DNA from: Phycisphaerales bacterium
Lineage (GTDB): Bacteria > Planctomycetota > Phycisphaerae > Sedimentisphaerales > Anaerohalosphaeraceae
Direction: 5' to 3'
Assembly: GCA_011048645.1 (NCBI GenBank)
Contig: DSDR01000172.1
Location: 1 to 41,375 of the forward strand
DNA length: 41,375 bases
In this document: positions 9,748 through 25,733 of the stretch, one piece after another
Layout: every line of letters starts with the position of its first letter
Position numbering within the stretch: the stretch's first letter is position 1
Notes under the pieces: generated by a model
The model's database searches: none
Told to the model about the DNA's origin: nothing
What the model saw: only the letters and a program-made list of their open reading frames with translations
Translations under genes and position numbers: made by a program

Positions 9748-11478
9748 TTAGGGAACATGATTATGCGTCGGGTCTTGTGTCTGTTCTTTCGTCTGCTCGG
9801 CCTCTGCGAACTGCGGCAATTTGTGCAGGTATTTTTCCGGTTCAGCCAGAAACATCTCCGGACACCCCGGACAACAGAAATACACTGTCTTTCCCTCGTA
9901 TTCAACAAATACGTCTTTGTTGATCGGACCATCCATCACCGGGCACAAAATCTGCTCCCCGTCGGCGCCGGCGTGTTGATGGCCGGCGGGCATCGGTTCG
10001 CTGTCGCGGCTCATCAGGCTGGGACGGCCGCGAAGCTGGAGTTCCGAATCGATCTTGAAATTGCCGCGCGTTACCACCTGTTCGCCTTCCATCAACCCTT
10101 CGCGGACCACATAATAATCGCCTGCCCGCGGGCCAAGGACAATTTCCCTGCCGATATAGGTCGGTCTGTCGGCCCCCTCGACGACCGCGTACACCAATGC
10201 ACGATCGAGCTTGCGTCCGGTCAGCAGCGCCGCCGAAGCGGGAATCACCAGCGGCGCCGGCTCAGGCTCCTGTGCGGCAACATAGCCCAGCGACTCGGCG
10301 GTCTCCAACGGCATGTGACAGATATCGCATTGGCCGGGGGCGTCTTTGACGATCTCGCCGTGCATCGGACAAATCCATTTGCCGGCCAGCAACGGCTCTA
10401 TGACCCGGCCGCCCTCGGCCAGCGACGAAGCGACCACCGCCCGCACCAGCATATCGGGCTTGAGTCGGCCATCGGGATTGTCCACCACCGCACGCACACG
10501 GATGGTTCGCGTCGCGTCGTTGAGCAGCGGGTTGATAAAACTGATGCGCCCCGTAAATACTTCGCCCGGCCAGGCCTCGGTCGTAAATTCCACCGTTTGC
10601 CCGAATCGCAGCCACGTCAAATCGGACTCATAGGCGTCCATCATCACCCACAAACGACTCAAATCGGAAATGGTATATATCGGACTTCCGGTCTGGACAT
10701 ACATCCCTTCGTTGGCTTTTTTCTCGATCACGATGCCGCCCATCGGCGAATAAATAGTCAGATGGTCCAGCGGTTGGCCTTGCTGCTGGATTTTTTCAAC
10801 CTGCGCCTCGGTCAGCCCCAGCAAAAGCAGCTTCTCGCGGGCGGCGGTCAAACTCGAGACCACCGATTGGCGCACCAGCTCGGATACCGCCGGTCCCAAT
10901 CGCTGCTGCGACGCACGCGCTTCAAGAAATTCGGCCTGAGCAGTGATCAAGTCGGGGCTGTAGAGAAAAACCATATGATCGCCGGCATTGACGCGAATTC
11001 CTGTATAATCGACATAAAGCCGGTCGATACGACCCGGAACCCATGCGGTGATGGTTTTGGTGCGTGTCTCATCCAGCGCCAGTTTGCCTACCAGACGAAC
11101 GTCCTTTGTAACAACCTGCCGCACGACCGGACTGGTCTGAACCTGCATCAGCTTGACTATTTCCGGCGAAAACGAAATCACCCGCTCGCCCATCGAATCA
11201 TCCGAATCGTCGTCCAGCGGAATCAGATCCATCCCGCAAATGCGACACTTGCCCGGCTGGGTTTCGCGTATTTGGGGGTGCATCGAACAGGTCCAGATGG
11301 TCTCTGCGGCCGGCTCCTGCGAACTTGCACCTTCCTGAACATCGCTGAGAAGCCCTTTTCCATCAAACCAAAAATAGGCCGCAACGAATCCGGCGGCAAA
11401 ACCAATGACCAGAAACAGGACAAATACGCCCTGTTTAAGTAAATTTATGTGTGTTTTTTTATTCATATCCACAGTCAA
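9748..11478 (-). CDS. cusB: CusB-like RND periplasmic adaptor carrying two heavy-metal-binding (HMBD) Cys motifs and a C-terminal YHS domain
   Basis: Motifs: WTCSMHPQIRETQPGKCRICGMDLIPL near the N-terminus, a second WICPMHGEIVKDAPGQCDICHMPLE inside the adaptor, the adaptor core (DVRLVGKLALDE.., VNAGDHMVFLYSPDL), and the C-terminal AGHQHAG..CPVMDGPINKDVFVEYEGKTVYFCCPGCPEMFLAEPEKYL. The start is ambiguous: TTG 11478, GTG 11472 (GAGG 8 nt upstream) or ATG 11466. Confidence 0.85.
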   Translation of the reverse strand: MTVDMNKKTHINLLKQGVFVLFLVIGFAAGFVAAYFWFDGKGLLSDVQEGASSQEPAAETIWTCSMHPQIRETQPGKCRICGMDLIPLDDDSDDSMGERVISFSPEIVKLMQVQTSPVVRQVVTKDVRLVGKLALDETRTKTITAWVPGRIDRLYVDYTGIRVNAGDHMVFLYSPDLITAQAEFLEARASQQRLGPAVSELVRQSVVSSLTAAREKLLLLGLTEAQVEKIQQQGQPLDHLTIYSPMGGIVIEKKANEGMYVQTGSPIYTISDLSRLWVMMDAYESDLTWLRFGQTVEFTTEAWPGEVFTGRISFINPLLNDATRTIRVRAVVDNPDGRLKPDMLVRAVVASSLAEGGRVIEPLLAGKWICPMHGEIVKDAPGQCDICHMPLETAESLGYVAAQEPEPAPLVIPASAALLTGRKLDRALVYAVVEGADRPTYIGREIVLGPRAGDYYVVREGLMEGEQVVTRGNFKIDSELQLRGRPSLMSRDSEPMPAGHQHAGADGEQILCPVMDGPINKDVFVEYEGKTVYFCCPGCPEMFLAEPEKYLHKLPQFAEAEQTKEQTQDPTHNHVP

Positions 11479-14725: not shown

Positions 14726-15862
14726 TTACTGCACTTTGTCAATCTCGTCCAGCGCGGCTGACAGTTCGCCGCACACCAGCCGAGCCTCATCCACCGTCAG
14801 ATTGTTGTGGAACGGCAGCGCCATCGTCCGCTCGCAGACCGCGTCGGTGATCGGAAAATCGCCCGTTTTGTAACCGAACCGCTCGACCATAAACGGCTGC
14901 AGATGGGCCGGCGGAAAATAATTGCTGACCTGAATCCCGCAGTCAAGCAATTTGTGAATCAGGGCGTTTCGCTGGGCCATCGTGTACCGTTCATCCAAAC
15001 GAATAACATAGACAAACCAGCTCATCCGCGCATCAGCCGGTTCAGTCGGCGTCTTGACCCGTTTTTCACCGGCCAGCAAGGCCGCGTATGTTCGGGCCAC
15101 GGCGGCGCGTTTTTCGATAAATTCTTCCATCCGTGAGAGCTGGACAAGCCCCAGTGCGCAGTTGATATCGCTGAGCCGATAATTGTACCCCATCCGCTCG
15201 TGCGCCAGCCAGCCGCCGCCGCGTCCGCGTCCCTGATTCCGCAAGGAACAGCACAGCTCGGCCAAGCGCTCATCATCGGTAACAATCATCCCGCCTTCGC
15301 CGGTGGTCATCTGCTTATTAGGGTAAAAGGCAAACACGCCGGCATCGCCGAACGTCCCGGCCATTTGCTCGCCCAGCGACGACCCCAACGCCTCACAGCA
15401 ATCCTCAATCACCCTCAATCCGTGCTTTGCGGCGATATCGCAGACTACATCCATCCCGGCCGGGTTGCCGAATACCTCCACCGGCACGATCGCCTTGGTC
15501 TTAGCGGTGATCTTCGCCTCGATTTTCGCCGGATCAAGATTCAGGCTCACCGGGTCAATATCCACAAAGACCGGCGTAGCCCCCGTCATTAAAATAAAAT
15601 TGACTGTCGCGATAAACGTAAACGGCGTAGTAATTACCTCGTCGCCCGGTCCCAATCCCATCGCCTGGGCACAAAGAAACAGCCCGCTGGTGCCGCTGTT
15701 GACAGCAATGGCGTATTTTCGCCCCACATACTCGGCAAATGCCGTCTCAAATTCCGGCAGCTTCGGTCCCAGCGACAGATTCGGACTGCGCAATACCTCA
15801 CACACCGCGTCAATTTCCGCCTCGGTAATATCCGGCCTCGATAAATAGACCCGCATTTCCAT
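14726..15862 (-). CDS. DegT/DnrJ/EryC1/StrS-family PLP-dependent sugar aminotransferase
   Basis: Motifs: RPDITEAEIDAV, LGPKLPEFE.AFAEYVGRKYAIAVNSGTSGL, DEVITTPFTFIAT, FYPNKQMTTGEGGM (Lys motif), NYRLSDI. Confidence 0.9.
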   Translation of the reverse strand: MEMRVYLSRPDITEAEIDAVCEVLRSPNLSLGPKLPEFETAFAEYVGRKYAIAVNSGTSGLFLCAQAMGLGPGDEVITTPFTFIATVNFILMTGATPVFVDIDPVSLNLDPAKIEAKITAKTKAIVPVEVFGNPAGMDVVCDIAAKHGLRVIEDCCEALGSSLGEQMAGTFGDAGVFAFYPNKQMTTGEGGMIVTDDERLAELCCSLRNQGRGRGGGWLAHERMGYNYRLSDINCALGLVQLSRMEEFIEKRAAVARTYAALLAGEKRVKTPTEPADARMSWFVYVIRLDERYTMAQRNALIHKLLDCGIQVSNYFPPAHLQPFMVERFGYKTGDFPITDAVCERTMALPFHNNLTVDEARLVCGELSAALDEIDKVQ

Positions 15863-16051: not shown

Positions 16052-19000
16052 CTATTCGTCGAATCGCACCTGTAAAACACCGGCAGACCAGCCCCGCTGC
16101 ATCCGAATTTCCAGCCGAACCGCCGTGGTGGTCACCTGCGTAAACGCCGTGCGATTGAACATATTCAGTTCGGTTGCATAGCCGTTGCTGTCGTCAACCG
16201 GTTTCCATTCATCGCCGTCCTTATACAGCAGCCGCCAGGACTGCGGAACCTTGCATTCGCCATGGCCGGTATCGTCCAGCCAATAGACCTCAACGGCTGA
16301 CAACGCGGTCGGCTCGGCAAATTCAAACTGCACCCACTCGGTGGTTCCCTTGCGAGGCCACCAATGATAGAACTCATTGTCTTTGTCGTGCGAGCTTTTC
16401 GGCTCGACGCCGCTGACGACCGACCGCGGACGACCTGTCCCGCGCGAAGCGGTAACGCGGCTTTCCGAGGCGAGTGTCGGGCGCGGCCGGACGAACGCAT
16501 CCTCTTTTCGTGTCGGCAGCCAGACCACCATTTCATTCGGGCCGCGATTACACCACGTTGAATAGGGGATCGCAGTCACATCCACCGACGACGTCACAAT
16601 GCGGTTGTCGCTGTCATCCAGCCCCACTTCGGAGGCGCGGAAAGTCAAGACCTGAACGCCGCCGAGCAAATTCGAACGAAACTCCGTATGGATGGGAGTT
16701 TTCGGATCCACAATCAAATTTCTGACCTGTTCGGTGGGGCTGTCGGCCGCTTCGATACAATACACAATCGGCCCGCGTTCCAGCGCGATGCGATGGCGGT
16801 TTTCGACCACATTTTCATGGGCGACGACCTGGCGCACGTCCATCGGGAAGTTCAGCTCGATGGTATCGCCGGCGTTCCACTGTCGCGTCATCCGCGCGTA
16901 TCCCTTATCCGGCTCAAACGAAACGGCTCGGCCGTTGACCCGTATCGTCGGTTTCTTGTCCAGCGTATCCCTATAGCGATACAAATCGCCCGGCACGGGT
17001 TGATTCATCGCCCAGCCCGGAATGCGAAGCGCCAGCGTGAAGGTTTCGCTCGTTTGGGGGGCGACGGTCAGCTTCACTTGTCCCTCCCAGGGGTATCGGG
17101 TTTGCTGTTCGATCTTGACGCTATTGTCCGCCAGTTGCACCGTGCCCTGCCCGCCGACATACAAATTGACGTAAAGAGCGTTGTTTCTTGTGGCATAAAC
17201 GTAGCCGGGCACGGAGGCCAGAAACCGCGCAATATTGCCCGGACAACAGGCACAGCCGAACCACGCCTGTCGGCGATGCTGGCCGCGGGATTCGAGCGGA
17301 TTGGGATAAAAGAATAACGTCCCGTCCAGCGACACGCCTGAAATCAGGCCGTTGTAGAGCGTCCGTTCCATCACATCGATGTACTTGCCGTCGCCATGCA
17401 GCAAAAACATCCGATGATTCCAATACACATTGCCGATGGCCGCACACGTTTCGGCATACGCACTCATATTCGGCAAGACGTAATTCGGCCCAAATGCCTC
17501 GCCGCTGGAGGTCGCGCCGATGCCGCCGGTGACATACAGCTTTTTGGTGACCATATTGTTCCAAATGCGATCCATCGCCTGAATGTACGCCTGATCGCCG
17601 GTCAGCGCCGCCACATCGGCCATCCCCGAATACATATACGTTGCGCGAACGGCATGGCCGACCGCTTCATCCTGATCGACCACCTTTTTATGCGCCTGAC
17701 TGTATTGACCGTCGTTGGGGCCGCGTGTGTCCAGAAAAAATTTGGCAAGATTCAGATATTTCTCTTCGCCGGTTACACGGTACAGTCGAACCAGCGCCAT
17801 CTCAATAATCTGATGGCCCGGAGCGTCTTCATTTTTACCCGGCCCGAAGGTCTCGCACAGCAATTCAGCGTTCTTGATCGCCACATCCAGCAGCGTCCGC
17901 TTGCCGGTGGCCTGATAATGAGCCACCGCCGCCTCATACAAATGCCCCATATTATACAGCTCATGGCTGAGCCGTTTGACGTAGATCCATCGCCGCGGTC
18001 CGGCCCACTCGTGCGGATTTTCAGGGTTGATCGTACGGGTGGTGTAAAGGTAGCCGTCCGGCTCCTGCGCCGAGGCAACCAAGTCAATGACCTGATCGAG
18101 ATAAGCATCCATTTTCGGATCATATTCGACGGCCAGGCCGTATGCGGCGCCTTCGAGCACCTTGTACGGGTCGGTATCGTCAAACGACAGTCCGGGCGGA
18201 GAACGATCTTCTAACTCTTCGCCGCGAAGCACCTTGGCCGCACGTTCGAAATGATAAAATCGTTTGGTTTCTTCGCATTTCTCAAACGCATGAGGAATCG
18301 TCACGGTCCGGTTGATTTCCACACGCGGCGCCCAGAATTCGTCATCAAAATGGACGTTCGTAAAGTCCACCGGCGAATAGGGGTAATCCCGCTCCAGGCG
18401 GAGCGTTTGTTTTCCGCCGCCTGATGGATTGCGTTTGATGATTCGCACGTCAAAAACGCCGCCTGCATAACTGTTTGGATGTGCCTGAAACCGTATCCTT
18501 ACTTTTTCTTTGCCTTTGGTCAGTTCCTCCGGAATCGGATGCGTTACATCGAAGAATTCATTCGGCTTGTTGCGGTCCAGCACCTGGGTGGCGATTTTTT
18601 CGCCGTCCACCAGAATATCAAAGGTTCTCCGACCGCGTTCCGACCCCCAGTAAGTCGCAATCAAATCCACCGGTTCATCGGGCAATACCTTCATATCAAA
18701 CTCAAACCATCCGTTGTAGGCGTCGCGCCACATTCGCCCGCTGAATGTGCCGACATTGGTTCGTTCGCCAGTCAGATTGTGGTCGCGTTCCGGCTGCATT
18801 TGACCCAGACGCAGCATATCCACACTCATCGCTTCGAGCTGTCGAATACGTTCCTGCTCTGCGGCAAATTCAGCCTGTTTATCGGCCCAGGCCTGCGGCG
18901 TAAAGACATCCATATACACCGTGTAGGGTTCATCGGCGATGGCGTAATGAGGCATCAGTTTCAGCGGCGTTGTCTTCCACCCGTCGGGGCCGCGCTGATA

Positions 19001-20788
19001 GGCCGTCGTTTCCGAGATAAATTCGAGCGGGGAAGTTTGCTTAAAGGCCTTCAAAAGGGCGCTGGTCTCTTCGGCCACCAGCAAAGGAGGCTGCTGCCCG
19101 TCGCTTAACGGGGCCGACAACAGGGTCGGGCCGTATAAAAAGGCCGTGCGATTCGGCATATCCGGCAGAGTTGATGTATGCAGCTTCATCGGGCATGTTA
19201 ATTCAATTGTGTCGCCGTCCTCAAAAGTGCGTCTTAGCGTCAGCCAGCCGTCCTGATCAACGGCGGCGTTTGTCGCCCGACCGTTCAGCGTTACTTCGAT
19301 GCCGTCAGCCCAATACGGCTTTCGTATTTTCAACACAAGACCTTGCGGCTGTATGCACTCAAAAGACAGCGCGACCTGTTCGTGGCTGGGCAATTGGCTT
19401 TGTTGGGTGAGCGTGATCCCTTTGTCTTTCCAGTTCAGAACCGACGAGATAAACAGATTGACATACAGCGTGTCGCCGGCATGGGCGTAAATGGTATCGG
19501 CGTATTTGGCGTGATTTTCCATACCGGTGCCGACACAGCACCAGAATGAGCGGGTCGGATGGCTGAATCCTTTTCGGGAGGGCATATCCAAAAAGCCTTT
19601 ATACACCAGCCGACCGCCCTGTTCGGGATGTTGATGCGCCAGAATGTGGTTGAGCAGCGCCCGCTCATAATAATCCATATAAGCCGCTTTGGGCTGCCAG
19701 GCAAACAAATGCCGCGTCAGCTTGAGCATATTGTAGGTGTTGCATGTTTCGGTTGTGTGGTGCATCCGCTCGGCCAGATGATCGGGTCTGCCGAAATACT
19801 CTTCGGCGCTGTTGCCGCCGTTGGCATAGGTGTAATGGTTGATTACCGTTGCCCAGAAGAAATCGGAAATCGTCTGATAGCGTTCCTTGCCGGTCAGTTC
19901 GTACAGCCGCGCCGTGCCGATGACCTTGGGAACCTGGGTGTTGGCGTGCAGACCGGTCAGACTGTTTTGTCGTTCGCTGAGCGGATCGAGCACTGATTTG
20001 TGATAGAACTTCTCTGCCAGCGCCAGATAACGTTCCCTGCCGGTCAAGGCGTACAGATCAGCGAACGTTTCGTTGATGCCGCCGTGTTCGCAGGCCAGCA
20101 TCTGCTGCCACTGCGATTCATTGAGACCCGCCAGCAATTCATCAATCCAGTCGGCGTGGCGAATCCACACCGCAAGCGCCTTTTGATTGCCGGTATAAAA
20201 ATAAATATCGCGCAATCCGGCCATCAGCTTGTGCTGGGTGTACCACGGCACCCAGATACCGTTCAAATCAAAACCGCGGGAGCGAATTTCTCCGCGCGAC
20301 ACTTCTTCAAAGGCTCGTTTGCCGTTGGGGAAAGCGGACATATAACCGCTGCCGTGTGCGTCCTGGATAAGGGCCAGCTCATCGACGATATACTCGAGTT
20401 TTTGCTTGAACTCATCGCGCCCGGTATGGCCGTACATCATCGCACAAGCCGACATATAATGCCCCAGACTGTGGCCGGCAATTGTTTCACGTTCCCAGCC
20501 GCCATAGACTTCGCCTTTCGGCTCCAATCCGGCCTCCTTTCGAAACCACGCCAGAAAACGATCCGGTTCCAGCGACAACAGCCACTCGGCGTTGAGGTCC
20601 ATGGCCGTTTTGAAGGGGCCTTCCAGCAGCCGAACATCGCCCAATCGGAACGGTCGGGCCTGTATCGCCGCCTGAGGCTCAACCCTGGCAGGAAAGTCCA
20701 TCGTCAGTGAGTCCGCTAAAAGAGGCGAAAACTGAAAACAAAACAAGACAAACATAACACCAATACAGAGCTTTGAGGCACGCATCAT
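16052..20788 (-). CDS. Secreted 1578-aa protein with two tandem GH127/DUF1680-like (beta-L-arabinofuranosidase-type) modules and a C-terminal discoidin-like beta-sandwich
   Basis: The signal peptide is MMRASKLCIGVMFVLFCFQFSPLLADS. Module 1 has GHSLGHYMSA.., HHTTETCNTYNM and SFWCCVGTGMENH. Module 2 has DDTDPYKVLEGAAY.., SHELYNMGHLYEAAV, SAYAETCAAIGN and AWFGCACCPGNIARF. The ETC and CC motifs match the Zn/Cys catalytic site of HypBA1 as I recall it. The C-terminus is WVQFEF..VEVYWLDD... Confidence 0.8.
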   Translation of the reverse strand: MMRASKLCIGVMFVLFCFQFSPLLADSLTMDFPARVEPQAAIQARPFRLGDVRLLEGPFKTAMDLNAEWLLSLEPDRFLAWFRKEAGLEPKGEVYGGWERETIAGHSLGHYMSACAMMYGHTGRDEFKQKLEYIVDELALIQDAHGSGYMSAFPNGKRAFEEVSRGEIRSRGFDLNGIWVPWYTQHKLMAGLRDIYFYTGNQKALAVWIRHADWIDELLAGLNESQWQQMLACEHGGINETFADLYALTGRERYLALAEKFYHKSVLDPLSERQNSLTGLHANTQVPKVIGTARLYELTGKERYQTISDFFWATVINHYTYANGGNSAEEYFGRPDHLAERMHHTTETCNTYNMLKLTRHLFAWQPKAAYMDYYERALLNHILAHQHPEQGGRLVYKGFLDMPSRKGFSHPTRSFWCCVGTGMENHAKYADTIYAHAGDTLYVNLFISSVLNWKDKGITLTQQSQLPSHEQVALSFECIQPQGLVLKIRKPYWADGIEVTLNGRATNAAVDQDGWLTLRRTFEDGDTIELTCPMKLHTSTLPDMPNRTAFLYGPTLLSAPLSDGQQPPLLVAEETSALLKAFKQTSPLEFISETTAYQRGPDGWKTTPLKLMPHYAIADEPYTVYMDVFTPQAWADKQAEFAAEQERIRQLEAMSVDMLRLGQMQPERDHNLTGERTNVGTFSGRMWRDAYNGWFEFDMKVLPDEPVDLIATYWGSERGRRTFDILVDGEKIATQVLDRNKPNEFFDVTHPIPEELTKGKEKVRIRFQAHPNSYAGGVFDVRIIKRNPSGGGKQTLRLERDYPYSPVDFTNVHFDDEFWAPRVEINRTVTIPHAFEKCEETKRFYHFERAAKVLRGEELEDRSPPGLSFDDTDPYKVLEGAAYGLAVEYDPKMDAYLDQVIDLVASAQEPDGYLYTTRTINPENPHEWAGPRRWIYVKRLSHELYNMGHLYEAAVAHYQATGKRTLLDVAIKNAELLCETFGPGKNEDAPGHQIIEMALVRLYRVTGEEKYLNLAKFFLDTRGPNDGQYSQAHKKVVDQDEAVGHAVRATYMYSGMADVAALTGDQAYIQAMDRIWNNMVTKKLYVTGGIGATSSGEAFGPNYVLPNMSAYAETCAAIGNVYWNHRMFLLHGDGKYIDVMERTLYNGLISGVSLDGTLFFYPNPLESRGQHRRQAWFGCACCPGNIARFLASVPGYVYATRNNALYVNLYVGGQGTVQLADNSVKIEQQTRYPWEGQVKLTVAPQTSETFTLALRIPGWAMNQPVPGDLYRYRDTLDKKPTIRVNGRAVSFEPDKGYARMTRQWNAGDTIELNFPMDVRQVVAHENVVENRHRIALERGPIVYCIEAADSPTEQVRNLIVDPKTPIHTEFRSNLLGGVQVLTFRASEVGLDDSDNRIVTSSVDVTAIPYSTWCNRGPNEMVVWLPTRKEDAFVRPRPTLASESRVTASRGTGRPRSVVSGVEPKSSHDKDNEFYHWWPRKGTTEWVQFEFAEPTALSAVEVYWLDDTGHGECKVPQSWRLLYKDGDEWKPVDDSNGYATELNMFNRTAFTQVTTTAVRLEIRMQRGWSAGVLQVRFDE

Positions 20789-20937
20789 CGACCAGTCTCC
20801 TTTCTCGTTTCAAGGAATCCATTATTCTCTATTCGATAAACTTAAAGACGATTTCCGAATCACCTGCCATCCTCTTAAAGAGGTTCAAGAAAATCAAAAG
20901 AAATGGACAGTTTTTTTGAAAAAATTGAAAAAAATTG

Positions 20938-20966
20938 TTGCAAAGTTAGGCGAACCTAATTATCTT
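20938..20966 (+). promoter_or_regulatory. Distal copy of the dtxR promoter (TTGCAA-17-TATCTT) with a DtxR-box-like palindrome AGTTAGGCGAACCTAATT (20944-20961) filling the spacer
   Basis: Read directly. TTAGG-cgaa-CCTAA is symmetric and resembles the DtxR/IdeR consensus TTAGGTTAGCCTAACCTAA. Confidence 0.5.
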
Positions 20967-20982
20967 AGACCAGACTTAAACT

Positions 20983-21225
20983 ATGAGTTTATACAATAAA
21001 CAACTGAGTGCCTCCCTTGAGGACTATCTGGAGGCGATATTTGTTCTTTCGCAGACAGGCAGGATTGCCCGCAGCAAATTCCGAATCACCTGCCATCCTC
21101 TTAAAGAGGTTCAAGAAAATCAAAAGAAATGGACAGTTTTTTTGAAAAAATTGAAAAAAATTGTTGCAAAGTTAGGCGAAACTAATTATCTTAGACCAGA
21201 CTTAAACTATGAGTTTATACAATAA
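20983..21225 (+). pseudogene. Duplication by-product: the first 31 codons of the DtxR-family gene, reading out of frame through the duplicated promoter (80-aa ORF)
   Basis: MSLYNKQLSASLEDYLEAIFVLSQTGRIARSK is identical to the start of the intact gene except for I/V. The ORF then diverges into FRITCHPLKEV.. and stops at 21223-21225, 17 nt inside the intact gene. Confidence 0.8.
21164..21192 (+). promoter_or_regulatory. Proximal copy of the dtxR promoter (TTGCAA-17-TATCTT). Its operator copy AGTTAGGCGAAACTAATT (21170-21187) carries a C-to-A change in the right arm.
   Basis: Read directly. The change breaks the CCTAA arm symmetry that is present in the distal copy. Confidence 0.5.
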
Positions 21226-21694
21226 ACAACTGAGTGCCTCACTTGAGGACTATCTGGAGGCGATATTTGTTCTTTCGCAGACAGGCAGGGTTGCCCGCAG
21301 CAAAGACATTGCCGAGCATTTGCAGGTAGCGCCGTCATCAGTCACAGGCGCGCTGAAAATGCTGGCCGAGCGGCAATTGATTCACTATAAACCCTATGGA
21401 TATGTTACCTTGACCGACAGAGGCCGGCAAATGGCCGGGCGTATCGTTCGACGGCATGAGGCGCTGGAATCATTTTTTTGCGATATCCTTGGGGTGGATC
21501 CCGATGTTGCGCAGCGCTCGGCCTGTTTGGCCGAACACGCCATCAGTTCGGAAATTGCATCGCGTCTGATGCTGTATTTGGAGTTTCTGTCATCGGAAAA
21601 ACAGTCCGGCAGAGATGTACCGCGGGCGTTTCAGGGGTATTGCCGGCAAACGGAGATCCGGAGTCAGGGCACACAAAAACCCAGTCATACGTGA
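21209..21694 (+). CDS. DtxR/MntR-family metal-dependent transcriptional repressor (HTH plus dimerisation domain, no SH3 domain)
   Basis: 161 aa. Motifs: EDYLEAIF, the HTH ARSKDIAEHLQVAPSSVTGALKML, YGYVTLTDRGR, RRHEALESFF and CLAEHAIS (metal-ligand positions). Fe versus Mn specificity cannot be read from sequence. Confidence 0.9.
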   Translation: MSLYNKQLSASLEDYLEAIFVLSQTGRVARSKDIAEHLQVAPSSVTGALKMLAERQLIHYKPYGYVTLTDRGRQMAGRIVRRHEALESFFCDILGVDPDVAQRSACLAEHAISSEIASRLMLYLEFLSSEKQSGRDVPRAFQGYCRQTEIRSQGTQKPSHT

Positions 21695-21766
21695 TGGTCG
21701 ATGTTCAGTGATGATGTTTATTGCGTCAAGGATTCAATAATGCAGACCAACAAGGAGACACAATCG

Positions 21767-21991
21767 ATGCCGCTTATACAAGTACCGGCCGGAAAGACCG
21801 TCGAGGTCGTTTTCATCGACGCCGGGCACGGGTTGAAAAATCGCCTTGCTTCCATGGGCGTCCTGTCTCATTCAACGTTTAAGGTATTGCGCAACGAAGG
21901 GGCCGGTCGGCTCATCGTCGGTATCAAAAACAGCAAAGTTGTCATCGGACGCGGCGCATCCGGTAAAATTTTTGTCCGGGAGTGTGAATAA
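21767..21991 (+). CDS. feoA: FeoA-domain protein
   Basis: MPLIQVPAGKTVEVVFIDAGHGLKNRLASMGVLSHSTFKVLRNEGAGRLIVGIKNSKVVIGRGASGKIFV is a typical FeoA SH3-like domain. I set the start at ATG 21767, which has AAGGAG 9 nt upstream. The track ORF starts at 21701. Confidence 0.85.
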   Translation: MPLIQVPAGKTVEVVFIDAGHGLKNRLASMGVLSHSTFKVLRNEGAGRLIVGIKNSKVVIGRGASGKIFVRECE

Positions 21992-22006
21992 TTTTTTTAG
22001 ATAATA

Positions 22007-22024
22007 AGTTAGGCAAGCCTAACT
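22007..22024. promoter_or_regulatory. DtxR-box-like perfect palindrome AGTTAGGC-AA-GCCTAACT between feoA and feoB
   Basis: Read directly: 8-bp perfect arms with a 2-nt centre. It shares AAGTTAGGC with both dtxR promoter copies, and TTAGGcaAGCCTAA matches the core of the DtxR consensus. Confidence 0.6.
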
Positions 22025-22043
22025 CGCACAGGGATTGTTTTCA

Positions 22044-24128
22044 ATGGAACAAAAAAAAGAAATACGTGTTGCTCTGGCCGGCAACCCCAACAGCGGAAAA
22101 ACCACTGTATTTAATCTGTTGACCGGTGCGCGGCGACACGTCGGCAATTATCCCGGCGTAACGGTCGAAAAAGTCGAAGGACGACGCGATTATAAAGGAT
22201 TTTTACTGCGTTTTGTCGATTTGCCCGGCACTTACAGTCTGGCCGCCTATTCCACCGAAGAGCTGGTTGCCCGGCATTTTATATTGGATGAAAAACCTGA
22301 TGTGGTCGTTGATGTGCTGGATGCTTCCAATCCGGAGCGGCATTTATACCTGGCCACGCAATTGATGGAAATGCGCACACCGCTGGTGCTGGCCTTTAAT
22401 ATGTCCGATGTCGCTCAAAGCCAGGGACTGGAATTTGATTTGAAACACCTGGAGGGCCTGCTTGGCTCTCGTATTGTGCCGATGGTGGCCAGCAAGGGTA
22501 AAGGAATGAATGACCTGCTGGACGCGGTCATCGAAACCGCGGCCGATAAGACGCCCATTACGCCGCCAATGCACTATGGCAAGGATATTGAGGCCGAACT
22601 GTCTCGGATTGAACACCTCTTGATAGAATCCGATTGCGAGGTCTCGGCCCGGTACGGAAGCCGATGGGTTGCTTTGAAACTGCTCGAAGGCGATGCGGAA
22701 CTATGCAGTCGCGTTAAACATTCGGATATTTTGAAAGTAGTTGAGGCCGCTCAGGTTCGGCTTAAAACCATTCTCGGCGATAGTGCGGACATCTTGATTG
22801 CCGACCGGCGCTACGGGTTTATCAGCGGCGCCTGCCAGGAAGCGATCAAGCACACCGTCCTGGCCCGCCACGATATCAGCGACAAGGTGGATTTGGTGCT
22901 GACGCATCGCTGGCTGGGACTGCCGATATTCGGAGTGCTGATGTATCTGGTGTTTTATCTGACATTTACGCTGGGCGAATATCCGATGGGGTGGCTGGAA
23001 ACGTTTTTCGATTGGCTGGGTGCGGCAACCGTCGCCGTTTGGCCGGGCGAAAACCTGCTCTGGCTGCAATCGCTTCTGGTTGACGGCGTGATCGCCGGCG
23101 TCGGCGGAGTCGTGGTCTTTCTGCCGAATATTCTCTTTCTGTTTTTGGGTATCGCTGTTCTTGAGGATACTGGCTATATGGCTCGCGCGGCCTTTATTAT
23201 GGATCGCATTATGCACAAGATCGGTCTGCACGGAAAAAGCTTCATCCCAATGCTGATTGGCTTTGGCTGTTCGATTCCGGCGATTATGGCCACACGCATT
23301 CTGGAAAACCGCCGCAACCGGCTGGCTACTATGCTGGTCATTCCGCTGATGAGCTGCGGAGCGCGCATCCCTATTTATGCGCTGCTGATTCCGGCGTTCT
23401 TCCCCCCCCACTGGCGCGGGCCGGTGATGTGGCTGATTTACATTATCGGAATCGTCGCGGCTATCCTCTGCATCAATCTGCTGCGGCGATCTCTACTCAA
23501 AGGCGAATCCGTTCCGTTTGTGATGGAATTGCCGCCCTACCGAATGCCGACATGGAAAGGCCTGTCTATCCATATGTGGGATCGCGGCTGGATGTATTTG
23601 AGAAAAGCCGGAACGATTATTCTCAGTTTATCCATCGTCTTGTGGTTTTTGATGAGTTTTCCCACGCCGCCGGAAGGACGGTTTGATCATCTGACGCCGG
23701 AAGAACAATACGCTGCCGGCCTGAAATATTCAATTGCCGGTCGCATCGGCAAAGCGATGGAGCCGGTGATTCGACCGATGGGTTTTGACTGGAAGATCGG
23801 TACCGCCCTGATCGGTGCGACCATGGCCAAAGAAGTGTTTGTGACGCAATTGAGTATCGTCTATTCGCTCGGCGACGAAGAGGAAGACGAAGAGACGCTT
23901 TCCCTGCTTCGTCAGCGGCTGCGTGCGGACTATTCGTCGCTTCAGGGGTTTTGCATTATGTTATTCTGTTTGCTCAGCACACCGTGTATTGCAACGGTGG
24001 CGATTACGCGCAAGGAATCCGGAAAATGGAGATGGGCCTTATTCCAGTTTTTCGGTCTGACGGCGATGGCCTATGTTGTGACCACAGCGGTCTTTCAAAT
24101 CGGCAGTTTGGTACAGTCGTTAATCTGA
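22044..24128 (+). CDS. feoB: Ferrous iron transporter FeoB (G-domain plus permease)
   Basis: G1 is GNPNSGKTT and G3 is DLPGTYSL, with gate motifs in the polytopic C-terminal part. I set the start at ATG 22044 (MEQKKEIRVALAG). Confidence 0.95.
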   Translation: MEQKKEIRVALAGNPNSGKTTVFNLLTGARRHVGNYPGVTVEKVEGRRDYKGFLLRFVDLPGTYSLAAYSTEELVARHFILDEKPDVVVDVLDASNPERHLYLATQLMEMRTPLVLAFNMSDVAQSQGLEFDLKHLEGLLGSRIVPMVASKGKGMNDLLDAVIETAADKTPITPPMHYGKDIEAELSRIEHLLIESDCEVSARYGSRWVALKLLEGDAELCSRVKHSDILKVVEAAQVRLKTILGDSADILIADRRYGFISGACQEAIKHTVLARHDISDKVDLVLTHRWLGLPIFGVLMYLVFYLTFTLGEYPMGWLETFFDWLGAATVAVWPGENLLWLQSLLVDGVIAGVGGVVVFLPNILFLFLGIAVLEDTGYMARAAFIMDRIMHKIGLHGKSFIPMLIGFGCSIPAIMATRILENRRNRLATMLVIPLMSCGARIPIYALLIPAFFPPHWRGPVMWLIYIIGIVAAILCINLLRRSLLKGESVPFVMELPPYRMPTWKGLSIHMWDRGWMYLRKAGTIILSLSIVLWFLMSFPTPPEGRFDHLTPEEQYAAGLKYSIAGRIGKAMEPVIRPMGFDWKIGTALIGATMAKEVFVTQLSIVYSLGDEEEDEETLSLLRQRLRADYSSLQGFCIMLFCLLSTPCIATVAITRKESGKWRWALFQFFGLTAMAYVVTTAVFQIGSLVQSLI

Positions 24129-24144
24129 TTTTCTGTTTTGAACG

Positions 24145-24327
24145 ATGAAGCCTATTAACCCGGCCCAAAAAAATAAGCTCAAAACGGCTTTGCCGAGTGT
24201 GTCCTCGCCGCCGATTTACCGCATCGAACAGCTTTTTGACGGCGCACGACAAGTCCGTTTGCTCCATAAAGGGCAGGAATATCGGCTGAGTATCACCAAA
24301 GCGGATAAATTGATCTTAACCAAATGA
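24145..24327 (+). CDS. HemP/HmuP-like small protein (60 aa)
   Basis: The C-terminal signature IEQLFDGARQVRLLHKGQEYRLSITKADKLILTK matches the HemP family pattern (..LF.G..E..I.H.G..Y.LR.T..GKLILTK). It starts 17 nt after the feoB stop. Confidence 0.75.
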   Translation: MKPINPAQKNKLKTALPSVSSPPIYRIEQLFDGARQVRLLHKGQEYRLSITKADKLILTK

Positions 24328-24416
24328 CAGGATAAAACGAATACATTAAAAATGCCAGCCAATTGCTCTGCAATAGCCAGCCATATCAAAAGTAAACTTT
24401 TTGGAAAGGAAAGTGT

Positions 24417-25733
24417 ATGGTTGGCAGAAAAAGTTTGTCTTATTGGCCATCTGTATTGGATTTATTTCTGGTTGCGAGGCTAGTCGTCTCGGACCAATCG
24501 TATGGGAATGAAATAGACACAGCAGTCATTCAGCATCGACTGGAACAATTGCAGGGCGAGATAAATCAGCTCAAGGCGATGCTGTCGCAGCAACAGGTCG
24601 AACAGGAACGTACTCGACAGGAGATTGAAACCTATCGTCAGAAGGTTCAGGCACAAGAAACGCTGCGTGCCGCCGAACAGGATCGGCTGCATATTGGCGG
24701 TTACGGTGAAATCAAAGGGAAATTCCGGCAAGGCAGCGATGCGGATTTTGGGGACATTCATCGTCTTGTCCTGGAAATCGGGTATGATTTTTCAGACTGG
24801 GTCAGATTTTTTTCCGAGTGGGAAGTCGAACACGCCCTTGTTTCCGATACGGCTGACGGTTCAACCGGCGGCTATTTGATGATCGAACAGGCATATTTCG
24901 ATTTTCTGTTGTCCGATATGTTTAACGTTCGGGCAGGTCGTATTCTGACGCCGATGGGGATCATTAACAAACGGCATGAGCCGGACACGTTCTTCGGTGT
25001 GGATCGTCCTTCTGTCGAGCGCTATATCATCCCCACGACATGGCCGTCGGACGGCGTTGGTTTGTTCGGCAATTTGGGTTCGCATCTGGCCTATGAGATG
25101 TATGTAGTCGGCGGCCTGGACGGTTCAAAATTCAATGCCGTCAACGGCATTCGCTCCGGCCGACAGCGGGAACGCCCCGGCCTCAATGATCCCGCCGTCA
25201 CGGGGCGACTGGACTATTTTCCGCAAATGAGTCCGGGACAGGATTTGCGGCTGGGGGTATCCGGCTATTACGGCGGATTGAACAACGGCAATCGGGGTCG
25301 AAATCCGGGCATCAGCGGCAAGATTCGAATACTGTCGGCGGATTTTGAGTATTCGATTGATAAATGGGACTTCCGCGGCGTTATCGTACACACCGATATC
25401 AGCAACGCCCGTCAGATTGGCAACGGCGCCGCCAGTGAAATGTTCGGATGGTATCTGGAAGGCGGATATCACTTTTGGCCGGACTCCTTCAAGGTCGGTA
25501 AGCTTGCCGATTCCGATGCGGTGGCTTTTGTGCGTTACGATCATTTTGACACACAGCACAAAATGCCTTCCGGAATTGCGGCGGATCCGGCCGGAGACCG
25601 AAATACATGGACGTTTGGAATGAATTTTGACTTGACCTCCAATGTTGTTTTCAAGACCGATTACCAGATACAGAAAGACCGCGCCGGGAATAAAGAGAAT
25701 TGGCTCAACTTTGGTCTGGGATTTTCATTTTAG
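24417..25733 (+). CDS. Outer-membrane porin with an N-terminal coiled coil (phosphate-selective porin O/P-like). The 5' end is possibly frameshifted.
   Basis: The coiled coil is LEQLQGEINQLKAMLSQQQVEQE... It is followed by alternating beta-strand sequence ending GLGFSF, with the terminal Phe typical of OM barrels. The annotated frame has no signal peptide, but a lipoprotein-type signal lies in another frame (see findings). Confidence 0.7.
   Translation: MVGRKSLSYWPSVLDLFLVARLVVSDQSYGNEIDTAVIQHRLEQLQGEINQLKAMLSQQQVEQERTRQEIETYRQKVQAQETLRAAEQDRLHIGGYGEIKGKFRQGSDADFGDIHRLVLEIGYDFSDWVRFFSEWEVEHALVSDTADGSTGGYLMIEQAYFDFLLSDMFNVRAGRILTPMGIINKRHEPDTFFGVDRPSVERYIIPTTWPSDGVGLFGNLGSHLAYEMYVVGGLDGSKFNAVNGIRSGRQRERPGLNDPAVTGRLDYFPQMSPGQDLRLGVSGYYGGLNNGNRGRNPGISGKIRILSADFEYSIDKWDFRGVIVHTDISNARQIGNGAASEMFGWYLEGGYHFWPDSFKVGKLADSDAVAFVRYDHFDTQHKMPSGIAADPAGDRNTWTFGMNFDLTSNVVFKTDYQIQKDRAGNKENWLNFGLGFSF

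Follow-up and report, generated by a model that had tools for sequence, protein, structure and literature searches.

A 226-bp tandem duplication of the regulatory region and 5' coding end of a DtxR/MntR-family regulator gene in a contig from an uncultured planctomycete

Background

That promoters can carry small duplications, which may contribute to variation in expression, has been documented before. In Mycobacterium tuberculosis, tandem repeats in promoters vary in copy number, with values of 1e-2 to 1e-3 per chromosome, and include a 57-bp duplication in the dop promoter (PMC12817950). A 36-bp duplication in the pbp4 promoter of S. aureus is among the promoter mutations studied for raised PBP4 expression (PMC9769611), and the cyp51A promoter of Aspergillus fumigatus carries the TR34 and TR46 repeats (bioRxiv 10.1101/2022.01.28.478276). 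The shorter a duplication, the lower the measured rate of its loss, which comes down to about 1e-4 per generation for 2.6 kb (PMC12607827). Two routes to short duplications have been described: integration of a circularised homologous fragment by a single crossover, which yields tandem duplications of 109-950 bp, and homology-facilitated illegitimate recombination (HFIR), in which an illegitimate joint at one end is combined with homologous exchange at the other (PMC3240628).

Here we analyse a tandem duplication at the start of a metal-dependent regulator gene that is located next to feoAB. The locus opens no new question; if real, it offers a clean natural case for study of a small duplication adding a promoter and a repressor site before an autoregulated metal sensor and its iron or manganese transporter.

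Results and discussion

Structure of the duplicated segment

The analysed stretch of DNA (41,375 nt), called the window hereafter, contains a sole tandem array detected by TRF, at 20853-21304, with a period of 226, 2.0 copies, 98% matches and no indels. Its parts, as delimited by the repeat search and by direct comparison of the copies, are:

20853-21078, forward strand: copy 1 (distal) of the unit, consisting of 130 nt of upstream regulatory DNA and regulator codons 1-32
21079-21304, forward strand: copy 2 (proximal), which runs on into the intact regulator gene
21071-21087, forward strand: novel joint, GCAGCAAA followed by TTCCGAATC, blunt and with zero microhomology (direct comparison)

The copies adjoin head to tail without a spacer and are identical at 223 of 226 positions, and identity ends at the unit edges on both sides. 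The three mismatches between copy 1 and copy 2 (20955 C / 21181 A, 21015 C / 21241 A, 21064 A / 21290 G) lie at offsets 103, 163 and 212 within the unit, and the longest perfect identities between the copies are 102, 59 and 48 nt. Adjacent copies lacking a spacer and differing at three positions had been reported in the first-pass annotation, and both TRF and the direct comparison bear this out. Its view of a duplication that takes in the regulatory region and the 5' end of the coding sequence is likewise supported, and the duplication looks genuine; its coding part is 96 nt, equal to 32 codons and not 31 as given there. The tandem copies have the form of a head-to-tail tandem segmental duplication, a kind of structural mutation. 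Neither the rest of the window nor the 226,628 nt of related loci that were scanned contains a further tandem repeat with a period of at least 30.

The regulator gene and its neighbours

The genes surrounding the duplication are:

16052-20788, reverse strand: divergent gene for a GH127 beta-L-arabinofuranosidase of 1578 aa
20983-21225, forward strand: chimeric ORF of 80 aa, comprising regulator residues 1-32 (with V28I) and 48 out-of-frame residues read through the second promoter-like site
21209-21694, forward strand: intact DtxR/MntR-family regulator gene, 161 aa, encoding the same protein as in four single-copy assemblies
21740-21991, forward strand: feoA, 83 aa, 45 nt downstream of the regulator gene
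22044-24128, forward strand: feoB, 694 aa

The 226-nt unit begins 65 nt upstream of the GH127 start codon, and a search of 20500-22200 gave no match to Rfam families. The regulator contains the domains PF01325 (Fe_dep_repress, E=3e-15) and PF02742 (Fe_dep_repr_C, E=1e-18), both above the gathering cut-offs, and its best solved relatives are 8pvt and MntR 1on1. In the alignment to Bacillus subtilis MntR, residues D14, E17, H83, E109 and H110 are found at D8, E11, H77, E102 and H103, and C106 is found at E99. The metal ligands of MntR are D8, E11, H77, E99, E102 and H103; the protein has five of the six, plus one DtxR-like Cys. The SH3-like third domain of DtxR sensu stricto is absent from the 161 residues; a separate gene downstream encodes the SH3-like FeoA protein. 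Domain content and ligand residues place the regulator among the two-domain, MntR-type proteins of the family. Its previous designation as dtxR needs correcting, since the protein belongs to the DtxR/MntR family and lacks the third domain of DtxR in the strict sense. As to the metal sensed, the pointers come from context only: the relatives are named 'Mn-dependent' by JGI, and the regulator gene adjoins feoAB. The feoA gene is probably co-transcribed with the regulator gene.

The 80-aa ORF was found as annotated before, with its stop 17 nt inside the intact gene. It had been described as a decoy starting with the helix-turn-helix (HTH) N-terminus of the repressor. In the alignment to MntR, read with the MntR and DtxR structures, the duplicated N-terminus spans helix 1 only and ends where the first helix of the HTH starts, so that the decoy ORF lacks an HTH. 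The ORF has no Pfam match, and an exact look-up returned this contig only, as a singleton cluster; it is absent from all relatives. Since it exists only because of the duplication, it is not a conserved leader peptide or uORF, and in annotation it should be treated as a by-product rather than a gene.

Promoter and operator sites

Putative regulatory sites in and near the duplication are:

20938-20966, forward strand: distal promoter-like site, TTGCAA (20938-20943), a 17-nt spacer and TATCTT (20961-20966), predicted at consensus level
20946-20959, forward strand: distal operator TTAGGCGAACCTAA, core GTTAG-N6-CTAAT, within the promoter spacer and the same as the operator of the single-copy relatives
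21164-21192, forward strand: proximal promoter-like site with the same hexamers, likewise at consensus level
21172-21185, forward strand: proximal operator variant TTAGGCGAAACTAA, with C to A at 21181, in no relative
22009-22022, forward strand: third operator site TTAGGCAAGCCTAA, in the feoA-feoB interval and shared by the three lineages compared

The promoter-like site TTGCAA-17-TATCTT matches the consensus at 8 of 12 positions, below the threshold of 9 used in the sigma-70 scan; planctomycete promoters are poorly known. Phased A-tracts precede the distal site. We retain the promoter-like site as a consensus-level prediction that is supported by conservation in relatives. The operator palindrome, with TTAGG/CCTAA arms, overlaps this site and is conserved across relatives. 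Its core is 14 bp, extending up to 18 bp at feoB, where it forms the palindrome AGTTAGGC-AA-GCCTAACT, and the arms are 4-6 nt apart. In the window and in the relative loci of about 20 kb, covering three lineages, the core GTTAG-N6-CTAA occurs only upstream of the regulator gene and upstream of feoB. The suggestion in the first-pass annotation that the whole iron regulon would be affected is thus not supported, as the only operators detected in the window and in these loci lie before the regulator gene itself and before feoB.

The duplication thereby supplies a second predicted promoter/operator module before the intact gene, a reading supported by the sites listed. An operator difference between the copies, TTAGGCGAACCTAA against TTAGGCGAAACTAA, had correctly been noted before: the change at 21181 destroys the GG...CC symmetry of the proximal operator (CCTAA to ACTAA). 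The base concerned is C at all sites upstream of the regulator gene and G at the feoB site of the sister species. A supposed invariance of this base was dropped after all sites had been tabulated, the feoB site of the sister species having G. As the base varies between sites, it is uncertain whether the repressor would bind the proximal operator more weakly.

Copy number and ancestral state in relatives

Upstream DNA was readable in 20 related assemblies, i.e. four of the same lineage, six lineage-B contigs and ten sister-species loci. All 20 have one copy, and the window contig is the only one of the 21 with two. The four same-lineage assemblies, which are independent, encode an identical regulator protein and are 99.8-99.9% identical at the DNA level. 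A single copy is also seen in all six lineage-B contigs that span the whole upstream region and in all ten sister-species loci inspected. The gap between the GH127 and regulator genes is 420 nt in the window, versus 194-229 nt in every relative. The joint sequence was sought in 19 related loci and is absent from all of them, and neither a 3-copy form nor an independent recurrence in lineage B or the sister species was found among the 20 assemblies. The comparison with related genomes, as proposed in the first-pass annotation with a view to variable copy number, therefore gave an invariant one copy in 20 out of 20.

The states at the three variable sites are C, C and G in all relatives, which means that each copy in the window bears private derived changes: G to A at 21064 in copy 1, and C to A at 21181 (operator) and at 21241 (a synonymous change in a Ser codon) in copy 2. 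With a single copy and these states in all 20 relatives, the duplication is, on this comparison, a derived feature of this contig alone. Divergence between the two copies is 1.3%, as against only about 0.1% between the window and the nearest single-copy strains.

Wider searches gave the following. A 27-nt operator-region pattern had no match in a scan over genome and metagenome contig collections. A 22-nt motif kept in all lineages retrieved three true homologues, all single copy, next to chance matches in unrelated genomes. An exact look-up of the FeoB allele of the window (H270) returned no other contig and so, like that of the 80-aa ORF, recovered none from the window's own lineage. Two short lineage-B contigs, L015 and L018, stop inside the unit and do not contain the joint sequence; a break at an A/T-rich low-complexity stretch is the likelier cause of these ends.

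Breakpoints

A short imperfect repeat is present at the two outer edges of the duplication:

20844-20858, forward strand: left quasi-repeat member AAAGACGATTTCCGA, 15 nt, spanning the left breakpoint
21302-21315, forward strand: right quasi-repeat member AAAGACATTGCCGA, spanning the right breakpoint

When 20,000 pairs of positions with a spacing of 226 nt were drawn at random, only 44 scored as high as AAAGACGATTTCCGA against AAAGAC-ATTGCCGA, so that the similarity of the flanks outside the repeat, as observed earlier, is real and unlikely by chance. The register of the quasi-repeat is off the actual joint by 5-6 nt. A simple in-register crossover within the quasi-repeat was rejected as a candidate, since it predicts a unit of 231-232 nt that keeps AAAGAC, where 226 nt and AAA directly followed by TTCCG are observed. 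The 15-nt quasi-repeat probably aided misalignment at the breakpoints.

A tract of derived substitutions

The direction of substitutions could be assigned in the region 17983-24694, and all six window-derived substitutions in that region fall in one tract of about 0.8 kb that straddles the joint:

21064-21862, forward strand: tract with the derived substitutions 21064, 21181, 21241, 21578, 21859 and 21862

Four of the six are synonymous changes in intact genes, one lies in the operator and one in the decoy ORF. Three of them lie in the part of the tract that runs about 650 nt past copy 2, after which the tract ends. Other window-specific differences are clustered too, at 11089-11406 and 15419-15439, as expected where recombination tracts dominate.

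The position of the tract across the joint suggests that one event of recombination or repair, and not gradual divergence between the copies, produced it. Such an event fits better than slippage followed by slow divergence, because the joint is blunt and out of register and one tract crosses it. The statistical weight is limited: the excess of SNPs in the repeat is modest (Poisson p=0.007, but with three lineage-specific differences reached in 4% of all sliding windows of 452 nt), and by our own estimate the coincidence of tract and joint is only suggestive (roughly p 0.02-0.1). Contiguity of alleles across the joint was also considered as a test for a donor fragment and was set aside as uninformative, as four of the eight possible configurations are contiguous. 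The event had previously been called recent and linked to slippage or illegitimate recombination. It is derived and private to this contig; recent slippage fits poorly with the blunt, out-of-register joint, the 1.3% divergence of the copies against about 0.1% from the nearest strains, and the single tract.

A different history, in which an old duplication arose and diverged in an unsampled sister strain and was later moved in as a stable allele by ordinary homologous recombination, appears very unlikely. It would be in line with a bounded derived tract (21064-21862) in a near-identical background, with one plus two private changes per 226-nt copy matching the density in the tract (three in about 650 nt), and with the clusters at 11089-11406 and 15419-15439, which show that recombination-like patches are common between strains. 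The searches turned up no donor lineage carrying the duplication, nor one carrying any of the six derived alleles, and the left edge of the tract lies at most 14 nt from the joint, which is better explained by the same event that made the joint. The numbers are too small to separate this history from single-event models.

The possibility of an assembly artefact

The tandem structure could also be artefactual. Contig ends or strain variants overlapping by 226 nt may have been joined without merging, or a chimeric molecule may have been assembled, the organism itself having one copy; in that case, variation between strains or errors at contig ends would account for the three differences. We regard this as unlikely, albeit with several observations in its favour. 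The two copies occur in a single assembly, set against 20 single-copy relatives, the 80-aa ORF is recorded from this contig only, and the three variant alleles occur in no other sequence. The variant at 21064 is within 14 nt of the joint, in a position where errors are common if the joint is a contig end, and the joint is without microhomology. Two of the three changes in the repeat are C to A transversions, and the six window-specific differences first found near the locus outside the repeat are all transitions, although the wider 20-kb comparison of such differences does include transversions.

Against an artefact, de Bruijn assemblers should not be able to create joint k-mers, an argument that presupposes an assembler of this type. 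The SNPs and unit boundaries are at most 117 nt apart, so a 127-mer or a 150-nt read would link each to the next. With every phasing link contained in one large k-mer or read, a two-copy path from a large-k de Bruijn assembly needs reads containing it. Moreover, overlaps that such assemblers leave unmerged do not exceed k-1 nt, which is below 226 nt. Location of the breakpoints at a quasi-repeat is unlikely by chance, and a random contig end would not account for it. The derived tract, which continues beyond copy 2 and then stops, is unlike a join of two strains' contigs, and the left and right flanks relate alike to the reference strains, with no strain switch at the joint. A chimeric join of strains was examined separately and rejected: polymorphism sharing with L020-L023 is equal left and right of the joint.

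Proposed origin and effect

We consider it fairly probable that the duplication is a one-off structural mutation in one uncultured Anaerohalosphaeraceae-related strain (Phycisphaerae), made in a single joining event, stable, and neutral or mildly adaptive. The 226-bp segment with promoter, operator and 32 codons would have been joined head to tail in a single illegitimate-joining or recombination event. Candidate routes are unequal exchange, integration of DNA from a close strain via one homologous and one illegitimate end, entry of a circularised fragment from a close strain by a single crossover, and error-prone repair of a break.

The repressor is proposed to be autoregulated and to head a regulator-feoA-feoB cluster. 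Both modules face the intact operon, and the stretch from the distal start codon to the intact gene shows no terminator-like site, so that distal transcripts would encode the 80-aa peptide first, followed by the regulator, FeoA and FeoB. The chimeric peptide, without an HTH and without a dimerisation domain, is presumed to be functionless. As a net effect, promoter dose might be raised by at most about two-fold under metal limitation. The proximal promoter may be slightly leakier, with the symmetry of the operator half-sites lost (CCTAA to ACTAA), and repressor bound to the proximal operator could also stop transcripts from the distal promoter. Most likely the change has a neutral or mildly adaptive effect and is a stable variant, not a switch.

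Two further-reaching adaptive readings are improbable, the one as much as the other. In the first, the duplication is a device of possibly variable copy number: the doubled promoter/operator and the weakened proximal operator would reset the set-point of the repressor and of metal uptake by Feo, and expression would be switched back and forth as RecA adds or removes units, a model also proposed for promoter repeats of M. tuberculosis. In the second, the duplication is real and kept by selection: inter-strain recombination would have added a module, and a weakened proximal operator would rewire autoregulation and Feo uptake, possibly with slow copy-number dynamics. If true, the latter would show operator duplication at work in the evolution of regulation, caught in nature in an anaerobic planctomycete that has not been cultured. 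Several features speak for the first: the whole putative promoter and operator lie within the unit, one change strikes an operator base that is C in every site upstream of the regulator gene, and the copies either persisted for the time needed to diverge or came in from outside and were retained, which could reflect selection. The perfect identities of 102, 59 and 48 nt still allow homologous recombination, being long enough by minimal homology requirements. There is also precedent in the copy-number variation of promoter tandem repeats in M. tuberculosis (PMC12817950).

Weighing against it, the 20 other assemblies, from three lineages, show no copy-number variation; neither a 3-copy form nor a recurrence is seen among them. 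Copies that are often gained and lost should stay identical, but 1.3% of positions differ, and the operator base that changed varies from site to site. The derived changes give no hint of positive selection, four of the six being synonymous and another lying in the decoy ORF. Since loss becomes rarer as duplications get shorter, and is down to about 1e-4 per generation already at 2.6 kb (PMC12607827), a 226-nt repeat should, by extrapolation, be stable. The role as a reversible expression switch put forward in the first-pass annotation is therefore unsupported: copy number does not vary, the copies have not been homogenised, and the repeat is expected to be stable. The duplication appears to be an ordinary mutation of a known kind.

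Comparison with known systems

The regulator resembles MntR of B. subtilis and DtxR/IdeR in its Fe_dep_repress and Fe_dep_repr_C domains, its ligand residues and a TTAGG/CCTAA palindrome over the promoter. Unlike DtxR/IdeR it is without the SH3-like third domain, and unlike MntR it has Cys in place of E99. The DtxR/IdeR box is 19 bp long, with the consensus TTAGGTTAGCCTAACCTAA and arms 9 nt apart; the operator here, with its arms separated by 4-6 nt, differs from that geometry.

As in spontaneous bacterial tandem duplications, the copies are arranged head to tail with a novel joint, the duplication is derived and located at a short imperfect repeat, and loss would be expected to occur by homologous recombination, with a rate dependent on length (PMC12607827). 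It differs from the usually studied duplications of kb to Mb in being only 226 bp, with no complete gene, a blunt out-of-register joint and three differing sites. The integration mechanisms cited above (PMC3240628) would set donor alleles contiguous across the joint, as is the case for 21064, 21181 and 21241. Microhomology of 3-10 bp and a compensating deletion are the usual marks of HFIR joints (PMC3240628), and both are absent here.

The dop, lpdA and cysG/efpA repeats of M. tuberculosis, for which a change in promoter strength was proposed (PMC12817950), are similar in that a promoter-bearing segment is repeated just upstream of the gene that it drives. Those repeats vary within and between strains and recur on many branches, whereas here one of 21 assemblies has two copies and the copies have diverged. 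The present unit also holds 32 codons and a repressor operator, unlike the M. tuberculosis repeats. The pbp4 and cyp51A cases share with this locus a short cis-regulatory tandem duplication containing transcription-factor sites, with the gene otherwise intact. They are drug-selected and their effects on expression were measured, whereas the present case is known from sequence alone; and unlike in those cases, the duplicated site here is a predicted site for the gene's own repressor.

Structure of the tandem repeat

Tandem Repeats Finder identified one large array in the window, at 20853–21304, with a period of 226 nt, 2.0 copies, 98% matches and no indels, and a second, separate repeat search returned the same units (20853–21078 and 21079–21304). 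There is no spacer between the copies, identity ends at each outer edge of the array, and base-by-base comparison revealed exactly three mismatches (20955 C/21181 A, 21015 C/21241 A and 21064 A/21290 G), so that the first-pass annotation was accurate in describing a near-perfect 226-bp duplication with three differences. Further tandem repeats with a period of at least 30 nt were found neither in the window nor in 226,628 nt of related loci.

Each unit comprises 130 nt of upstream DNA and 96 nt of coding sequence; the 5' coding end is indeed duplicated, albeit over 32 codons and not 31. The ORF listing contains both the 80-aa chimeric ORF (20983–21225) and the 161-aa regulator ORF (21209–21694), overlapping by 17 nt as had been reported. 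The chimeric ORF does not, as was claimed, start with the HTH N-terminus: in an alignment with MntR, the duplicated protein fragment stops at the start of the first HTH helix.

The regulator and its neighbours

The genes surrounding the repeat are the following:

16052–20788, minus strand: GH127 arabinofuranosidase gene, 1578 aa, divergent, upstream of the regulator
21209–21694, plus strand: regulator, 161 aa, with both iron-dependent-repressor family domains (PF01325 and PF02742)
21740–21991: feoA, downstream of the regulator
22044–24128: feoB, downstream of the regulator
24145–24327: hemP-like ORF, 60 aa, clearly matching the HemP hemin-uptake domain at E=1.5e-13, located after feoB and before a phosphate-porin-like gene

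The closest solved structures to the regulator, 8pvt and 1on1, belong to the two-domain MntR type and not to three-domain DtxR. Its residues at the six MntR metal-ligand positions (D14, E17, H83, C106, E109 and H110) form a hybrid site of five MntR-like residues and one DtxR-like cysteine, Cys106, which occupies the position of MntR E99 and of DtxR Cys102. The protein lacks an SH3-like domain; the next gene downstream encodes FeoA, a separate protein that is itself SH3-like. Given the two-domain relatives and the mixed ligand set, the name dtxR is right only as a family label and does not by itself imply iron specificity.

The GH127 neighbour is unusually large, carrying F5/8 type C and DUF6805 domains besides two GH127 catalytic-domain matches, and its synteny with the regulator-feoAB cluster extends across the three lineages. 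The HemP ORF is not among the called genes on related contigs. At FeoB residue 270 (site 22851), the window shares His with the sister species and lineage B, and Tyr270 in the four near-identical assemblies is a derived state; the window FeoB therefore has no exact match on other contigs in the collection.

Copy number in related genomes

An exact-protein look-up found the identical regulator in four independent assemblies, whose DNA matches that of the window at 99.8–99.9% identity across the compared ~20 kb. Their GH127-regulator gap is 194 nt in each case, versus 420 nt in the window. Related assemblies are named as Anaerohalosphaeraceae or Phycisphaerae MAGs (Planctomycetota).

Copy number of the 226-nt unit in relatives
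Lineage of the window, identical regulator protein: 4 assemblies, single copy
Lineage B, ~93% DNA identity: 8 contigs (entire upstream region present in 6), single copy
Sister species, 78% protein identity: 10 of 10 loci inspected single copy (24 contigs read in the look-up)

The unit is thus single in every relative with readable upstream DNA. The joint sequence GCAGCAAATTCCGAATC was absent from all 19 loci searched, and look-ups returned no record of the 80-aa ORF outside this contig. Since all relatives show C, C and G at the three variable positions, each copy carries private changes: 21064 G->A in copy 1, and 21181 C->A (operator) and 21241 C->A (synonymous) in copy 2. These comparisons mark the duplication as a derived feature of this contig alone.

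Two lineage-B Logan contigs, L015 (1–111) and L018 (1–86), terminate within the region homologous to the unit and lack the joint sequence; these breaks are probably due to an A/T-rich low-complexity stretch, not to a hidden duplication.

Breakpoints, SNP tract and origin

The joint (21078/21079) has no microhomology. A 15-nt imperfect direct repeat (AAAGACGATTTCCGA / AAAGAC-ATTGCCGA) straddles both breakpoints, with a score reached by only 44 of 20,000 position pairs drawn at random with the same 226-nt spacing. The likeness of the flanks, earlier read as a hint of slippage or illegitimate recombination, is therefore real, but the quasi-repeat lies 5–6 nt out of register with the joint, an offset that excludes simple crossover or slippage between its two members. 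The quasi-repeat may have helped to hold a misaligned intermediate together.

Divergence between the copies is 1.3%, compared with ~17 of 20,260 sites between the window and the nearest strains; at that rate a 452-nt stretch should contain ~0.4 changes (Poisson p 0.007), but because the differences cluster, 4% of sliding windows reach three lineage-specific differences. With lineage B and the sister species as outgroups, six changes within 17983–24694 were assigned as derived in the window (21064, 21181, 21241, 21578, 21859 and 21862), forming a ~0.8-kb tract across the joint; at 18581 and 22851 it is the other strains that carry the derived state. The four changes within intact genes are all synonymous. 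The remaining window-specific differences are likewise clustered, at 11089–11406 (four) and 15419–15439 (six). The latter, six substitutions in 21 nt relative to the four nearest strains, lie in a DegT/DnrJ/EryC1-type aminotransferase gene; their alleles are partly common to lineage B, and the cluster resembles a patch of micro-recombination or the product of a multi-nucleotide event.

This tract also bears on whether the duplication is an assembly error, which we consider unlikely. In favour of an error, only one assembly has the duplication, none of its three variant alleles occurs elsewhere, and one variant lies 14 nt from the joint. Against an error, the SNP tract is bounded and does not run to the contig end, no strain switch is seen at the joint, and breakpoints at a quasi-repeat are improbable by chance. 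Moreover, no gap between neighbouring variant sites or unit boundaries exceeds 117 nt, and each can be linked to the next by a 127-mer or a 150-nt read, so that a large-k de Bruijn assembler would need reads containing the phased path. The joint lies only ~390 nt from the exact midpoint of the window, itself a complete contig of 41,375 nt, which we treat as coincidence; no mirrored or repeated window halves were found, and the window is colinear with single-copy relatives across its centre.

We infer that one event made both the duplication and the SNP tract. Four candidate origins stand side by side on the present data. DNA of an unsampled, slightly diverged strain may have integrated with one illegitimate end, or a circularised ~226-nt fragment may have entered by a single crossover, as in E. 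coli, where such integration yields 109–950-bp duplications (PMC3240628); for such a fragment, the observed pattern follows if the donor haplotype was A-A-A and the crossover fell between unit offsets 163 and 212. Alternatively, an older duplicated allele may have been imported, or error-prone break repair may have been responsible. Contiguity of the derived alleles is uninformative as a test of origin (four of eight configurations are contiguous).

Promoter-like and putative operator sequences

Alignment of the upstream regions revealed several conserved blocks. The elements within the unit, and a further site between feoA and feoB, are the following:

20871–20883 and 21097–21109: 13-nt perfect palindrome CCTCTTAAAGAGG, in the unit, between the divergent GH127 and regulator genes
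20903–20937 and 21129–21163: 22-nt block ATGGACAGTTTTTTTGAAAAAA followed by phased A-tracts (TTGAAAAAA, twice), just upstream of the -35-like hexamer
20938–20943 and 20961–20966: distal promoter-like site, TTGCAA and TATCTT with a 17-nt spacer
22009–22022 (extended 22007–22024): third operator motif, AGTTAGGC-AA-GCCTAACT, a perfect 8+8 palindrome between the feoA stop and the feoB start

The palindrome TTAGGCGAACCTAA sits within the 17-nt spacer. Its core, GTTAG-N6-CTAA(C/T), occurs in only two places per ~20-kb relative locus scanned in three lineages, one ahead of the regulator and one in the feoA-feoB gap, and in the window at these two places plus the duplicated copy. This is the distribution expected of the regulator's own operator. 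The third motif is conserved in position in both lineage B and the sister species, which suggests either a dedicated, repressor-controlled promoter for feoB or a roadblock site. The base altered in the proximal operator is C at every regulator-upstream site and G at the feoB site of the sister species, and is thus conserved without being invariant; the proximal operator may plausibly be weaker.

CCTCTTAAAGAGG, now present twice through the duplication, is unchanged in lineages A (that of the window) and B and differs at a single position in the sister species; it could be the binding site of another regulator. ATGGACAGTTTTTTTGAAAAAA is invariant across species only ~78% identical elsewhere, and together with the A-tracts may act as an UP-element, form bent DNA or belong to the divergent GH127 promoter. 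No terminator-like sites were found from the distal start codon to the intact gene, and no Rfam family matched in the region.

Expected effect on expression

The sequence comparisons show directly the tandem structure, its derived and private status, an unaltered downstream gene and conservation of the operator. Transcription into regulator-feoA-feoB would be expected from both modules, with distal transcripts first encoding a presumably functionless chimeric peptide. As its stop lies 14–17 nt beyond the real start codon, some translational coupling is possible. At most, the arrangement would raise promoter dose modestly and make the proximal promoter slightly leakier.

The first-pass annotation raised the possibility of a reversible expression switch, for which promoter tandem repeats of M. 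tuberculosis are a real precedent (PMC12817950). We argue against this: copy number is constant among relatives, the window being the sole two-copy case among 21 assemblies with readable upstream DNA, and the copies have diverged and not been homogenised. In addition, shorter duplications are lost less often, the rate being down to ~1e-4 per generation at 2.6 kb (PMC12607827), a trend by which a 226-nt repeat should be stable. The first-pass observation is thus confirmed, and its interpretation is supported in part. The SNP context is informative, but the comparisons gave no evidence of function or switching. The duplication is a fresh instance, in an uncultured planctomycete, of a well-known kind of mutation, the short tandem duplication of cis-regulatory DNA.
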